Virus record (IMG/VR): IMGVR_UViG_3300033067_001661
Coordinates: 96,001 to 160,000 of that record
DNA length: 64,000 nucleotides
Strand: one strand, 5' to 3'
Origin: a virus
Taxonomy: Duplodnaviria; Heunggongvirae; Uroviricota; Caudoviricetes
The notes under the pieces are model-generated. The model was not told the DNA's origin. It worked only from the letters and a program-made list of their open reading frames with translations, and searched no databases. The position numbers and the translations under genes are program-made. Of this stretch, positions 280 through 23,568 are shown piece by piece. Each line of letters begins with the position of its first letter. Position 1 is the stretch's first letter.

Positions 280-1029
280 TTACTTGAAAACGGTATTATG
301 TACATATCGAATATCTGTTTCAAATTCCTCCATTATTTTCTTTATCAAAAAGAAATCAATTTCGTCATCAACTTGTATAGAGGAAAGCTTATCGTTAAAA
401 TATAGAATTGGATCTTTATCAAACCTGCATTTTTCTCTTAAAAACATTGGAACTCTAAAACAATACAAACAACCGTCATCGTGATACGCCATTTCATTTA
501 TAGTTAATTCTTGTCTCATCTTTCTATTTTTAGCATCAAATAAGACATCTGTATAACCATTTTGTTGTCGGAAAAAAAATGGAGTATGAGAACTTACTGT
601 AAGTAAAGAATTCTTATCTGAATCATCTAAAATTTGAATACAATCATCTATTAGTGATATTTTTCTTATTGGAGATGTTGCCTGCAACATAACTAAATAA
701 TTGAAATCAGCATAATATGGATAATTGTCAAATAGATGACTAATAGCTTGCTCAGTCTTGCTTGTCGCAGAGCAAAGTTCTGCCGGTCTTTCAATCGCCC
801 TAAATACCTTCTCTGTATGTTCAGAAGCAAACTTGTTGAATGCTTCAAAAACCAATGGATCAATAGCTGAAACAACTATTTCATCTATGTACTTACTTTG
901 TGTTGCAGCAAGTAATGTCCACTCTAAAAGAGAGTGTTGACCAATCTTTTTGAACATCTTTCCGGGAAGACCAATAGAAGCCGTCTTGCCAGGAATGAAC
1001 GCTATTACTTTTGATTTGTCGGGGAGCAT
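280..1029 (-). CDS. Acylneuraminate (CMP-nonulosonate) cytidylyltransferase-like protein
   Basis: IAFIPGKTASIGLPGKMFKKIG (PARxGSKGxPxKN-like), RPAELCSATSKT, LQATSPIR, DDGCLY, SIQVDDEIDF: NeuA/CMAS family motifs. Confidence 0.85.
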   Translation of the reverse strand: MLPDKSKVIAFIPGKTASIGLPGKMFKKIGQHSLLEWTLLAATQSKYIDEIVVSAIDPLVFEAFNKFASEHTEKVFRAIERPAELCSATSKTEQAISHLFDNYPYYADFNYLVMLQATSPIRKISLIDDCIQILDDSDKNSLLTVSSHTPFFFRQQNGYTDVLFDAKNRKMRQELTINEMAYHDDGCLYCFRVPMFLREKCRFDKDPILYFNDKLSSIQVDDEIDFFLIKKIMEEFETDIRYVHNTVFK

Positions 1030-1463
1030 ACTTCAATCAACATATTGGGAACAAATTCAGGTAAAGGGCTAAAGCAATCTTCCAAATACTCATATGCCTT
1101 ATTTAGTCTAATCGAAGGAGGCTCTTGTGATGTAATAATTTCCAACAACTTATGAATACAAGCTTCGGCTCTATTCTCACAAACTGAACTCTTAGGCTTT
1201 TCTTTTTCCTTTTCCTTTTTAGGACAAGCTTCGGTTAGACGCCTTCTTTGCTCTTCCCAAGCCTCCTTATTCAAGGCCTCAAACTCTTTCTTCTTATCAT
1301 GTAACCTTCTCGAAAACTCTTCTGCGTCTTCGAACATTTTAGCAAACTTATCAAACTGAAGTTTGATAATCTGATCTCTCAATTTCTTTTTTGATAACTT
1401 CTTAGAATTCTTTTTTCGACTAGAAGTTTTCCTTACTGACTTTTTGTTTTGCGTCTTCTTCAT
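1005..1463 (-). CDS. Hypothetical Lys-rich protein
   Basis: 152-aa ORF overlapping both neighbours in operon fashion; no family recognised. Confidence 0.6.
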   Translation of the reverse strand: MKKTQNKKSVRKTSSRKKNSKKLSKKKLRDQIIKLQFDKFAKMFEDAEEFSRRLHDKKKEFEALNKEAWEEQRRRLTEACPKKEKEKEKPKSSVCENRAEACIHKLLEIITSQEPPSIRLNKAYEYLEDCFSPLPEFVPNMLIEVCSPTNQK

Positions 1464-2215
1464 TTCTTTCTATCTCCATATGTTTTAAGAACTTCGGACA
1501 AGCTAATTCTTGGAAAAACCTCAACAATTCCACCCGAGGCATTGAGAATTCTTCCTTGCATCAGTCTTGGGTTCATTTCAGCAAAATGACTCCAATACAA
1601 GTCGTATGCAACACAGTGATTATCGACAGGTTTATCTCTGAGCAACCCTCGATTCGGTGTTGAAAATATGCGATTATTATACTCTATAGCCTTGGGCTGA
1701 TTAGGAAACTGCCAGTAATACCTATTTCTTCCTTCAAAACAACCGTCCATGCCAAGAAGAATAATAGGATCGCATCCCATAATATAAGCAATATGCATCG
1801 CCGAAGCAGCCGACGTTCTCGCCCCCATAATGGGCTTTTCTGGATCGTCCGTCATAATGACATTCTCTTTATGATAAATCAATCCATTTGGACCCGAAGA
1901 AGCCCATCCTACATGATCATAAAATAGAACTTCTTCTGGCCTAAAAATAGACTCATGACCTTGAAGCTTTTCTCTATAAAGAAGCTTCAAACACTTACTT
2001 TGCTTAGCCGTTACTTGCCAATAGTTCCAACTACAAACGCCATTATCATCGGTTACAAAATAATCGCAGTTAGGGAACTTCAACAAACCAGAGTTAGACG
2101 TAAAAACAACATAGTCCTTTAGACTATCCGTTTCAACATGCCGCAAAGAAGGGCCTGCGCCAACGATAAAACCAAGCTTACCTTTATGTTTGTCCTTAAA
2201 GTCCCTTAGATGCAT
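1460..2215 (-). CDS. DUF115/Maf-like (MptE-like) putative nonulosonate glycosyltransferase
   Basis: FKDKHKGKLGFIVGAGPSL, TSAASAMHIAYIMGCDPIILLGMD and ILNASGG match the Maf_flag10/DUF115 pattern. Confidence 0.75.
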   Translation of the reverse strand: MHLRDFKDKHKGKLGFIVGAGPSLRHVETDSLKDYVVFTSNSGLLKFPNCDYFVTDDNGVCSWNYWQVTAKQSKCLKLLYREKLQGHESIFRPEEVLFYDHVGWASSGPNGLIYHKENVIMTDDPEKPIMGARTSAASAMHIAYIMGCDPIILLGMDGCFEGRNRYYWQFPNQPKAIEYNNRIFSTPNRGLLRDKPVDNHCVAYDLYWSHFAEMNPRLMQGRILNASGGIVEVFPRISLSEVLKTYGDRKK

Positions 2216-3196
2216 TCAAAACTCCTATTACTTCTTCTTCTCTTATAAGGCGGTTCTTCGCCATATTCAAATACTCTTGTTTGCCATCTATTCCAATGAA
2301 CTTCCGCCCATTTTGCAAGGCTATAACACCTGTCGTACCTGAACCACAGAAAATATCAAGAACCACGCTTTTGTCAACTTCATTTGTTTCGCAACTACAA
2401 GTTTTCAACCATCCGACAGTCTTTGTATCAGTTAGATGCCTTCCCGAATCCCTATTTGCAAAACCCTTCTTATCAACCTTATTGTGTATGCCAGGACGAG
2501 TTGAATAGCGAGTTTTCTGAACTTGCCTTTCATAAGGAGAGCCACACGCCCTGCAACAACCATGACCGCTAGTTGAAGCTAAAACACAAGGTTCAACCAA
2601 ACCTTGAGGAAAGACAGCAAAGTGAGCGCCCTTAAAAGACGCAACAGGAACGGTCCAAACGTCCCTTTTGATACGTCTCTTAAAAGAACCGTCCGCATTG
2701 CGTTCAACAGCATTCTCTTTTATAGACTCTTGATCATAATAATAGTTTTCAGACTTACCAAGAAGAAATAGATATTCATGCGAAGAAACTGGCCTATCCG
2801 TTACGCCTCCAGGAAGGGGATTTGGTTTGGCCCAAATTATGTCGCTTCTCAAAAACCAACCGTCTTTTCTTAAAGCAAAAGCGAGCATCCAAGGGATTCC
2901 CAAAAGGTCTCCCTTTTTATATCCTTCGCCGGAAGCTCTTGCGTAAGTATCGCCTATATTAAGCCATACAGTTCCGTCATTTCTAAGAACACGTTTAGCG
3001 GCAGAAAACACGCTAACAAGCTTAGCTATATACTCGTCAGGAGTCTTTTCAAGACCAATCTGATCTTGAAAATCATAATCTCGCAACTGATAATAAGCTA
3101 ATAGGGCGGAGAAGTCACAATAGCATGAACGCTATTGGGACTCATTCCGCCCAACACTCCTTCCGTATCACCGCATAATAATTCATAGTTTGCCAT
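2196..3196 (-). CDS. Beta-class N4/N6 DNA methyltransferase interrupted by an 8-nt insert (stop plus frameshift) in the SPPY motif; recoded gene or pseudogene
   Basis: ATG at 3196 gives MANYELLCGDTEGVLGGMSPNSVHAIVTSPPY* (TAG at 3100-3098). Another frame continues YQLRDYDFQDQIGLE...WLNIGDTY...DIIWAKPNP...HFAVFP...VLDIFCGSGTT. Removing 3093-3100 restores a 330-aa protein with SPPYYQLRDY. Confidence 0.9.
3093..3103 (-). other. Candidate translational bypass (stop-hop) site: TAT TAG CT TAT
   Basis: Matched Tyr codons at 3103-3101 and 3095-3093 flank an in-frame TAG. Landing on the second TAT restores the frame. Function is inferred. Confidence 0.45.
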
Positions 3197-3254
3197 AAAG
3201 GAGTTATCGACCATATGAAAGAAATAGTAAAATATACCGTTATACGGAGGATGT

Positions 3255-3992
3255 ATGAAGAACGAAACCTTAGCCTATCTGGCAGGAGCAATGGACTCTG
3301 ATGGTTGGTTTTCAATAAAAAAATCAGATTACAAAACAAGAGTCATCAAAGACTGTTATTATCCTACTTATCAAGCAAAAGTTGGACTAAAACAAGTAAC
3401 TCCTCAAATTCCAAATCTATTACATTCCATTTTTAGAGGTAGCCTGAGAAAAGAAAAAGGACAATCAGAAAACAGCAAAGAACTCTTTGTTTTTGAATGT
3501 AACAATCAGCAAGCTATTGCTTTCTGTAAAACCTTGTTTCCTTTTCTTGTTGTAAAGAAACAACAAGCCAAAATTATTTTAGAATTGGAAGAGACCAGAA
3601 ATCGCAAGTATCTAATGCACAGTTACTGGTTCAGTCAAAAATATCCAAACTGGAAAAATGACGAACTTCTTAGTAGCCAAGAAGTTTGTCATATTTTGGG
3701 GTACAAAAATCTAAGCTCAGTATCTCAAGCAGTAAAAAACGGCCTTTTACTTTCTGTGAAAGGAGCTTATCACTTAGCCAGTAAACCTCGTATACCTAAA
3801 AAACTTGTTGAAATAGTCTTAGAAGAGCAAAGAAAAGGGAAAGACGGGAGGGTTAGAACTTCTCCACAAGAAGTTGTAGAATGGAGGGAGAGATTATACA
3901 AACAAGTAAGAGAACTAAATAAAATAGGCATTCATGGTACGGAAGTTTATTTCCGTACAGGGTATCATACCAGAAAAGATGGGGCTATTTAA
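3255..3992 (+). mobile_element. Free-standing single-motif LAGLIDADG homing endonuclease with an inserted HTH
   Basis: TLAYLAGAMDSDGWF motif, FPFLVVKKQQAKII, HTH-like LLSSQEVCHILGYKNLSSVSQAVKNG. GGAGG RBS. Opposite strand to neighbours and AT-rich. Confidence 0.85.
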
Positions 3993-4013
3993 TTTCTTTG
4001 TCTTTGTTAATAT

Positions 4014-21958: not shown

Positions 21959-22807
21959 TTAACTAATCCTGTTTTCCTCAACAGTATTTACTGTCTTTTT
22001 ATTTTCCTCAATTCTCTTGGATCTTGGAATATAATCGTCAAATATATTAGAAACGGCAGATATCCTTTGTCTTGCGTAATTAACATCGGATTCAGAATTA
22101 TCTATACCAATGTAATTTCTGCCAAGAACTTTAGCCATCAAACCTGTAGTGCCAGTTCCCATAAACGGATCAACAACTGTATTCCCTCTGTAAGAAAATA
22201 GCTTAATGACCCTTCTTGCTAACTCTTCAGGGAATGGCGCTGGATGACCATTTAGATTCTGAGTTTCTGGTTGAATAAACCATGTTGAAAAAGTCCAGTT
22301 TTGGAACTCTTCATTTGTCATATCAGAAAGCTCAGGGTCTCCTTCGAGTTTCCAACTACCCTTAGACCAAACCATAATATACTCATGATTTCGTCTAATA
22401 GCAGGATTAGAGCAAGACATATAAGAACCAAAAGCAGTTGCCCTGCCTGACCAGTTCTGCTTATACCAGCAAATTTCGGTTCTATATTTAAGACCTACCT
22501 CTCTACCTACATTGATAAGGTCACCCGCGATAGGTCTCATATATTCGTCGTCGTCTTGCCTATTTCTAACAGAATCAATATTGATTACAAGTCGGCCTCC
22601 GTCAACAAGTATTCTCTTGCATTCAATAAATATCTTCTTTAGCCAATCAACATATACCTTATATGGATCGTCGTCATTACGATTACGATACCCTTCAAGC
22701 TGAATATTATAAGGCGGAGAAGATAAAACAAGATGAACACTCTCGTCAGGTATCTTTTTGAGACCGTCCAAAACATCGTCCAAAATAATTGTGTTCAACA
22801 AGCTCAT
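21959..22807 (-). CDS. Beta-class N4/N6 DNA methyltransferase
   Basis: SVHLVLSSPPYN, HPAPFPEEL, VVDPFMGTGTT. Confidence 0.92.
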   Translation of the reverse strand: MSLLNTIILDDVLDGLKKIPDESVHLVLSSPPYNIQLEGYRNRNDDDPYKVYVDWLKKIFIECKRILVDGGRLVINIDSVRNRQDDDEYMRPIAGDLINVGREVGLKYRTEICWYKQNWSGRATAFGSYMSCSNPAIRRNHEYIMVWSKGSWKLEGDPELSDMTNEEFQNWTFSTWFIQPETQNLNGHPAPFPEELARRVIKLFSYRGNTVVDPFMGTGTTGLMAKVLGRNYIGIDNSESDVNYARQRISAVSNIFDDYIPRSKRIEENKKTVNTVEENRIS

Positions 22808-22809
22808 GA

Positions 22810-23568
22810 TTACTCCGAGAATATATCTTTTACTACATCTAGTCTTTGCTTTGCTAAAGCAATCGCTTTAGGGTTCTTATCGCTTCCAACAGGGAATCTT
22901 TTAGCCGCTAACGCTGCTTCTAAAAAACTACCGCTACCGCAAAATGGGTCCAAAACTCTATCCCCAGGATTGCTCCATATAGTAACTACTCTCTCCATGA
23001 GTTTAAGAGGCTTTTGAGTGGCATACCCGTTCTTTTCCGGTTCGTTCCTGCATATTGCAGGAATATCAACCCACCAATCCTCAAGAAGCTTACCTCTCTG
23101 TTCATAATGTTCCCAAGGAATTTTTTCTTTCGACCAAGCAGCAGCCCCTCCGACATTCATCTTGGTTTTATATGGAACCCTGGGTTGGTTAAATACATAC
23201 TCTCCGAGTCCATACCATAGGATCGTATGATGCTTCCTAGGGAGCCATCTCTTAGCGCTTGCAGGATTACTAAAGCCCCATATAATTTCGTTCCTGAAGC
23301 TATCCCTTCCAAAAATCTTATCCATTGAAACTTTGACATAATGTATCGCCTTGTAATCCATATGAACTACAATATTCGAATCTTTCTTCATGAGCTTTTT
23401 GATGGCGCTTAGCCTATCAGCCATATAAGAAACAAACTCGTCAAAAGACGAACCAACTCCATAGTATTCATCTTCAGATTCACAACTATAAGGCGGATCT
23501 AGATACACTAAATCAACAGGCTCCGTTACCAGCCCAAGACAGTCAGTATTATGAAGTTCATATTTCAT
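22810..23568 (-). CDS. Beta-class N6-adenine DNA methyltransferase
   Basis: VDLVYLDPPY, FRNEIIW, YATQKP, VLDPFCGSGS. Confidence 0.92.
   Translation of the reverse strand: MKYELHNTDCLGLVTEPVDLVYLDPPYSCESEDEYYGVGSSFDEFVSYMADRLSAIKKLMKKDSNIVVHMDYKAIHYVKVSMDKIFGRDSFRNEIIWGFSNPASAKRWLPRKHHTILWYGLGEYVFNQPRVPYKTKMNVGGAAAWSKEKIPWEHYEQRGKLLEDWWVDIPAICRNEPEKNGYATQKPLKLMERVVTIWSNPGDRVLDPFCGSGSFLEAALAAKRFPVGSDKNPKAIALAKQRLDVVKDIFSE

Follow-up and report, generated by a model that had tools for sequence, protein, structure and literature searches.

A stop-led 8-nt insert in the catalytic codons of a phage DNA methyltransferase gene, and related inserts beside homing endonuclease genes

A gene that is stopped within its catalytic motif, resumes in an intact frame a few nucleotides later and lies beside a homing endonuclease gene raises the question of whether a complete enzyme is still made from it, and what the nuclease has to do with the interruption. 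Such a locus lies in the window analyzed here, the 64,000 nt at positions 96,001 to 160,000 of the IMG/VR record IMGVR_UViG_3300033067_001661. The source is a single contig of 333,623 bp with 45 predicted tRNA genes, most likely the genome of a jumbo phage, and near-identical DNA is present in sequencing runs from wastewater, sludge and river.

The interrupted gene and its neighboring nuclease

On the minus strand from position 3112, the methyltransferase (MTase) gene reads TCT CCG CCC TAT TAG CT TAT TAT CAG TTG CGA GAT TAT. Its 5′ part (3101–3196, minus strand), of the β-class amino-MTase type, comprises 32 codons from the ATG at 3196 to the catalytic SPPY and ends TSPPY-stop. The last sense codon, TAT for the Tyr of SPPY (3101–3103, minus strand), is the putative take-off codon. 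It is followed by the 8-nt insert (3093–3100, minus strand), which consists of the stop TAG (3100–3098, next base C), the dinucleotide CT and the putative landing codon TAT (3095–3093); a 5-nt direct repeat, TATTA, leaves the register of the insert ambiguous. The 3′ part (2196–3092, minus strand) runs for 298 codons from YQLRDY to the stop at 2196, matches Pfam N6_N4_Mtase and is intact through the SAM-binding motif. Both hallmarks of a β-class N6/N4 DNA methyltransferase, the N-terminal (D/S)PPY and the C-terminal FxGxG, are thus present. The earliest in-frame ATG of the 3′ part lies 68 codons downstream, and none of the first four TAY triplets that follow the stop falls outside the resume frame.

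The nuclease gene (3255–3992, plus strand) is free-standing and encodes a single-motif LAGLIDADG protein of 245 aa. The divergent spacer (3197–3254) separates its ATG at 3255 from the MTase ATG at 3196 by 58 nt and holds a GTCGATA box common to related phages. The first-pass annotation had described the TAT-TAG-CT-TAT insert in the SPPY codons and a divergent LAGLIDADG gene 58 nt from the MTase ATG, and both descriptions hold with all their coordinates. It had also called for a check that the 8 nt are real. At the contig level they are recovered in the independent IMG/VR contig L001 and in contigs of runs X4, X10 and X13, the last of which carries 32 other differences across the stretch, yet no gap at the insert. 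An assembly error as the source of the 8 nt is ruled out by this identity among independent assemblies.

Upstream of the MTase ATG in the window no Shine-Dalgarno sequence was found, and the RNA fold suggests that the ATG may be sequestered. In five relatives (L002–L005 and L083) the GTCGATA box is followed by a hairpin hiding a Shine-Dalgarno sequence; the window (3197–3215) lacks the Shine-Dalgarno arm, and codons 11–13 offer the 5′ arm an alternative pairing partner. A scan for σ70 promoters and an Rfam search gave no result above chance. Cytidylyltransferase and MptE-like genes come after the methylase both in the window (280–2215) and in these five relatives, which additionally carry NeuB and a HAD phosphatase in a nonulosonic-acid pathway-like cluster. 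Two more amino-methyltransferase genes stand in tandem on the minus strand at ∼22040–23100 of the window (genome 118040–119100), and the one with SSPPY is intact.

The match of the nuclease to Pfam LAGLIDADG_1 is weak. Some ∼80 full-length homologues at 36%–54% identity share an invariant YLAG..D.DG, including D14, D16 and G17, and the structure model (pLDDT 93) finds its best fold matches in I-CreI, I-MsoI and I-CvuI. Model and fold search together give the motif helix with its catalytic acidic residue and the α-β-β-α-β-β-α fold. As modeled, the protein is a single-motif LAGLIDADG domain, I-CreI-like over residues ∼1–115, with a helical C-terminal extension. It resembles I-CreI, I-MsoI and I-CvuI in fold and motif, and differs in being free-standing and phage-borne, in its ∼18%–21% identity to them and in the extra C-terminal 130 residues. 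Its dN/dS against L081 is 0.04. The closest relative, L203 (54%), has no adjoining methylase, and the tree of nuclease domains is mostly unresolved, with the insert types described below scattered across it. Gordonia phages were considered as a cultured example and rejected, the LAGLIDADG there being distant and lying inside a C5-type methylase at a different site; in Ailee and Inspectinfecti (L252:2098–3972 and L253) the LAGLIDADG gene occupies an overlapping frame within an open C5-methylase frame.

A mobile cassette and a family of inserts

The nearest intact methylase, L083, reads SPPYYQLRDY and lies directly after UvrD with no nuclease gene; four more distant relatives (L002–L005) are likewise intact and empty. 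Between L083 and the window, amino-acid identity is 95% over the 3′ part and 45% over the first 31 residues, and this step at SPPY marks a sharp conversion boundary. Alignment to L083, together with a contig joint, delimits a mobile cassette (3093–4013) made up of the nuclease, the spacer, a new methylase start and the insert, which stands in for ∼135 nt running from the UvrD stop to the SPPY codons (the spacer and the former 5′ end of the MTase). The joint, from 3095 to 4013, was found in two wastewater runs, X4 and X6, at ∼2× the depth of the form with the nuclease, which means that the two alleles coexist there. In the comparison of the window with L001, dS is 0.05 for the nuclease and 0.29 for the 3′ part, and the 5′ coding part is identical, which indicates that one cassette recently entered two backgrounds. 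Present and absent alleles, a sharp conversion boundary and a conserved site are as found for free-standing homing endonuclease cassettes.

At no fewer than 10 loci the old gene start survives beyond the nuclease, its sequence ending abruptly within TSPP(Y). The exchange point therefore lies in those codons, and the element carries its own replacement start. In-frame fusion joins the old methylase start to an HNH nuclease in L222 (8460–9206), L224 and L225 (minus strand) and to a LAGLIDADG nuclease in L180 (2917–3366); in the fusions of L222–L225 and L180 the nuclease uses the start of the host gene, and the new methylase start comes after.

A test for co-occurrence of SPPY-site inserts with LAGLIDADG genes had been proposed, and its outcome is positive. 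Loci were fetched via the nuclease, regardless of the methylase, and the adjacent SPPY site was then read (the insert-blind set); control methylases (53 distinct) were fetched via the MTase 3′ part, regardless of any nuclease. An insert at SPPY was present in 24 of 31 distinct nuclease-adjacent SPPY-type methylases versus 2 of 53 controls (Fisher p 1e-12, a value that, like the other p values here, overstates independence because the alleles are related). The 24 inserts measure 1, 4, 5, 6, 7, 8 or 9 nt. All 20 multi-base inserts open with an in-frame stop that immediately follows a codon for Pro, Tyr or Trp; in the four 1-nt cases a C or T is added to TAC TTT, which makes a typical +1 site. 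Scans for the pattern, which select for a stop and so were left out of these counts, enlarged the set to 44 distinct alleles with inserts of 1–10 nt. What had been framed as a single site is therefore one member of a family, with dozens of unrelated contigs sharing this layout at the SPPY motif and with +1-shift sites and HNH-linked or nuclease-free cases among them. All three stops are used, TGA most commonly (25/38). Termination is weak in E. coli when C follows the stop, and C is the base after the stop in 9 of the 15 inserts of at least 7 nt.

Insert alleles also stand behind HNH nucleases (L196, L198, L213 and L222), and others have no nuclease nearby (L069, L075, L193–L195, L197, L201, L212, L214–L216 and L230); most of the latter have an intact 3′ frame, and several have kept the hairpin described below. 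An insert is not the only route, as eight SPPY-type methylases adjoining a nuclease are intact without one. In five of these eight, the residue before SPP is Cys, Ser or Leu rather than Thr, a substitution found in none of 54 intact methylases without a nuclease and none of the 24 insert alleles of the insert-blind set. To judge from these alignments, the insert and the Thr substitution may be alternative escapes from the same nuclease.

Some further matches lie at the edge of the family. In L168 (2871, minus strand), a methylase of another subfamily has a 4-nt TAAC insert after SPPY and resumes with YNAKLEY; it adjoins a full-length nuclease homologue and was left out of the counts. Bacterial genome matches to the stop pattern (L234–L251) failed the methylase filter. 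When phage collections were searched with the MTase 5′ region, each of the best 60 matches aligned in one piece.

Matched codons, hairpins and a proposed bypass

If ribosomes cross the inserts, the triplet on which they land should bear a relation to the codon that they leave. The landing triplet, which would occupy the P site after the hop, was fixed by the downstream G-L-R anchor and not by eye. It tracks the take-off codon across the 44 alleles, with TAT, AAC and AAT after Tyr, TGG, TGA, TGC and AGG after Trp, and CCN and ACG after Pro. In 23 of the 24 inserts of at least 5 nt, two or three bases of the landing triplet would pair with the take-off tRNA, against a random expectation with a mean of 4.8 and a maximum of 14 in 20,000; when landing triplets were permuted among loci, the observed score was never reached.

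The first-pass annotation had regarded the site as minimal, with two matched codons only. This is not so, since a 5′ mRNA hairpin of 49 nt (3104–3152, minus strand; basal helix GGGCGGA with UCCGCCC) ends one base before the take-off codon, and the 8-nt gap itself is unpaired in the RNA fold. The hairpin has z scores of −4.2 against dinucleotide shuffles and −5.8 against synonymous shuffles, compared with −0.2 and −0.7 for the empty allele. Mean z is −2.2 in the 44 insert alleles and −0.15 in 61 intact ones (p 5e-8), and the excess persists after thinning to 17 insert and 21 intact distant alleles (p 1e-3), where z falls below −2 in 60% and 3%, respectively. Seven intact alleles adjoining a nuclease have no hairpin, and in the left-behind old 5′ ends it is weak or absent. 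The 3′ edge of the hairpin is displaced by one codon at each step through the Pro, Tyr and Trp take-off classes, and in two strong +1 cases it lies 4–5 nt further back, so that in each class at least ∼5 nt would separate the hairpin from the final P site. In six Trp-class alleles, 5 of 17 hairpin pairs are changed on both sides, a count that leans in favor of the structure because it was scored on that of one member. In the genome of the window, a codon, a stop and the same codon again precede a long resume frame at 28 sites, among which the SPPY site has the strongest upstream hairpin; this rank and the recurrence of the layout in unrelated contigs speak against a chance arrangement. No convincing further hop site was found elsewhere in the 334 kb. 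A 3′ hairpin (3046–3072, minus strand; 12 pairs, ∼20 nt after the landing codon) gained no support as an element-specific signal, being identical in the empty allele L083, and the family has no general excess of 3′ structure (p 0.14).

The best reading of these observations, and one that we consider probable, is a programmed short bypass that breaks the nuclease target while keeping the enzyme. The LAGLIDADG nuclease would cut the DNA of relatives, most likely in the conserved T-S-P-P-Y codons, and repair would copy the cassette into the cut relative. Because the replacement start must rebuild the catalytic SPPY codons, it would recreate the target, which the 8-nt insert would then break. In translation, the ribosome would stall when UAG enters the A site, with peptidyl-tRNA-Tyr paired to UAU; Pro-Pro just before a stop might slow termination. 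The base of the 5′ hairpin would still be inside the ribosome, in the mRNA exit path, and could close only on forward movement. The tRNA would release, slide 8 nt and re-pair on the next UAU, and decoding would restart on the UAU after that, so that the product is the normal enzyme of 330 aa containing SPPYYQLRDY. In this account we infer the cut site, the protection by the insert, the hop and the push of the hairpin. The earlier suggestion of an insert and nuclease paired as in T4 thus gains comparative support from co-occurrence, TSPP(Y) breakpoints and codon covariation, with its minimal form set aside.

A wider proposal, which we hold a little short of evenly balanced, is that a natural, widespread and efficient short-range recoding module (5′ hairpin, stop and matched codon, from a +1 shift to a 10-nt hop) lets at least two families of homing endonucleases enter phage genes at their catalytic codons without recourse to introns or inteins, works on the ribosomes of many hosts and outlasts loss of the nuclease. 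If true, homing endonucleases would have, in addition to introns and inteins, a third means of residing in active-site codons, and many phage methylases annotated as truncated or as pseudogenes would be functional.

The closest known counterpart is T4 gene 60, with its 50-nt bypass, UAG after the take-off codon, matched codons, 5′ stem-loop and MobA with the HomR segment (10.1101/2022.08.31.505936); from what is reported there of Bonocora et al. 2011 (PNAS 108:16351), the insert is thought to give immunity. The window likewise joins an endonuclease to a replacement stretch of the host gene (HomR in T4) and has a stop-led insert, matched TAT/TAT codons, TAG directly after take-off and, as predicted and supported by covariation, a stem-loop upstream of it. 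It differs in several respects. The gap is 8 nt (1–10 in the family) rather than 50 (shortest 20) and too short for a take-off stem-loop, which is missing, as is the mini Shine-Dalgarno; take-off is on Tyr, Trp or Pro rather than Gly; the nuclease is LAGLIDADG and not HNH; a methylase catalytic motif is interrupted rather than a topoisomerase; and the whole N terminus is replaced, without splitting of the gene into two subunits. There is no sequence relation. The system of the window thus works like the MobA element and is not a member of it, as it has no HNH nuclease in a topoisomerase large subunit. A 5′ stem-loop has been proposed to propel gene 60 bypassing (10.1101/2022.08.31.505936; 10.1101/2024.12.09.627546), and a hairpin upstream has been found to promote +1 shifting by 70S ribosomes (PMC6321510). 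With dozens of family members that differ naturally in the length of the gap, the take-off codon, the match at landing and the distance of the hairpin, the long-standing idea that a refolding 5′ stem-loop drives the ribosome forward can be tested directly, without the other signals of gene 60.

So far, programmed bypassing in bacteria has been described for T4 gene 60 with its relatives and, on partial evidence, for the terminase of Streptomyces phage Hau3, where experiments back a short natural bypass (PMC10732093). The Hau3 site is similar in its ∼10-nt gap and proposed 5′ stem-loop, and differs in being triggered by a hungry UUA codon, in its regulatory role and in the lack of a nuclease. 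Synthetic E. coli “stop hops” (Weiss et al. 1987, as summarized in PMC5009743) share the short gap and the matched codons flanking a stop; as summarized there they are low level and artificial, whereas the sites here are natural, variable in length and accompanied by a conserved hairpin. The same 2016 review knew of no natural in-frame stop hop (PMC5009743). The Magnusiomyces mitochondrial byps (Lang et al. 2014, as outlined in 10.1101/2022.08.31.505936) are also mobile inserts neutralized by matched-codon bypassing; in that outline they are 27–55 nt long, have an unused sense codon instead of a stop, act on a mitochondrial ribosome and have no linked nuclease. Phage DNA methylase genes are repeatedly invaded in actinophages as well (the ShiLan domain, inteins and a lone LAGLIDADG), those elements being large in-frame insertions without a stop and with no bypass described (PMC11855218). 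Our literature search, with subscription journals mostly outside it, found no report of such an SPPY insert with a nuclease.

Other readings of the insert

The main rival to the bypass, which we judge unlikely, is that the insert is a scar that protects by destroying a dispensable methylase, with the matched codons arising as duplications in repair of a staggered cut and no full-length protein being made. The 4-nt inserts, which form the commonest class, are still compatible with such an origin; their landing triplet is mismatched at position 1, and 3 of 14 are exact 4-nt duplications that create their own stop. The window insert is itself a 6/8 tandem match. Over the family, the landing triplet matches the preceding sequence at 81% and the other insert bases at 13%, so that the inserts are not tandem duplications, and duplication as the whole story is ruled out for inserts of at least 6 nt. 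The landing triplets of non-duplicated inserts track tRNA identity, the stop always adjoins the take-off codon and the hairpin moves with that codon, none of which a scar explains, although a strong hairpin is missing in ∼40% of insert alleles and the lack of a Shine-Dalgarno sequence at the window ATG also suits a gene no longer in use.

The state of the two gene parts bears on the same question. Among related elements the cassette-borne 5′ segments have dN/dS values of 0.05, 0.08 and 0.13 at dS 0.7–0.9 (25 codons each, with two of the pairs also the closest by nuclease identity); these comparisons indicate that the cassette-borne gene start is under purifying selection, and a scar accounts neither for that nor for why the element brings a new gene start. 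The 3′ frame has dN/dS 0.03–0.05, which was rejected as proof of function: homing is recent and the 3′ divergence predates it, so the low ratio is silent on the interrupted gene, and an intact 3′ frame proves little against a scar. The proposed dN/dS check on both fragments therefore speaks for constraint on the 5′ part and is uninformative for the 3′ part. The 3′ frame is unbroken in 33 of 37 complete insert alleles and broken or truncated in four (L104, L109, L170 and L214), compared with at most 1 of 57 intact alleles. The enzyme is thus dispensable in some lineages, in keeping with a scar, as is the presence of other amino-MTases in the genome.

In L104, L109 and L170 the 3′ part stops after 7–66 codons and unrelated genes come next, and the cassette may there have landed in, or left, a deleted gene. 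A second LAGLIDADG-like domain forms a large in-frame insertion in the insert-bearing methylase of L106 (2152–2478), and L117, L174 and L210 also have large in-frame insertions; the 3′ frames of these four reach 500–720 codons, and the insertions are probably inteins.

The remaining readings, namely split-gene complementation, micro-splicing and suppression, fit poorly. That the 32-residue peptide assembles with a separately initiated 3′ product, with no hop, seems very improbable to us. Aeh1 NrdA, split by MobE, is a precedent for a gene in pieces; an in-frame TTG (3086) lies 11 nt after the stop, and such an arrangement would also give selection on the 5′ segment. Only 12 of 44 insert alleles, however, contain a start codon between −4 and +5 codons relative to the resume point, there are no extensions like those of the MobE or MobA splits, and the matched landing codons are left unexplained.

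No more credible is removal at the RNA level, with the insert a micro-intron excised by an endonuclease and a ligase that recognize the hairpin. A conserved structure does abut the insert, and the phage encodes tRNAs with odd loop insertions. Against this, inserts of 1–10 nt have no conserved ends, their features follow reading frame and tRNA identity, and the 8 nt, with no Rfam intron match and no bulge-helix-bulge in the fold, resemble neither a group I/II nor a BHB intron. No contig of two RNA runs lacked exactly these 8 nt, which weighs little as contigs drop rare forms and the runs may be DNA.

Read-through of the stop with a frameshift, for example by amber suppression and with extra residues, or rare DNA slippage at the TATTA repeat yielding a few intact genomes, can be largely discounted: just 9 of 192 long ORFs end in TAG, a CUA-anticodon tRNA is called by ARAGORN and the 5-nt repeat is at the site, but suppression alone would not restore the frame, every stop codon occurs in the family with TGA the most frequent, homologues never carry extra residues there and long repeats are missing from most family inserts. 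The CUA tRNA, called as tRNA-Pyl, was rejected as a suppressor on account of its abnormal anticodon loop and the frame that would still be shifted. It lies outside the window (G000, genome 12932–13011) and has a short palindrome in its 14-nt anticodon loop; several more tRNAs of this genome have loops enlarged by extra bases or by predicted introns.
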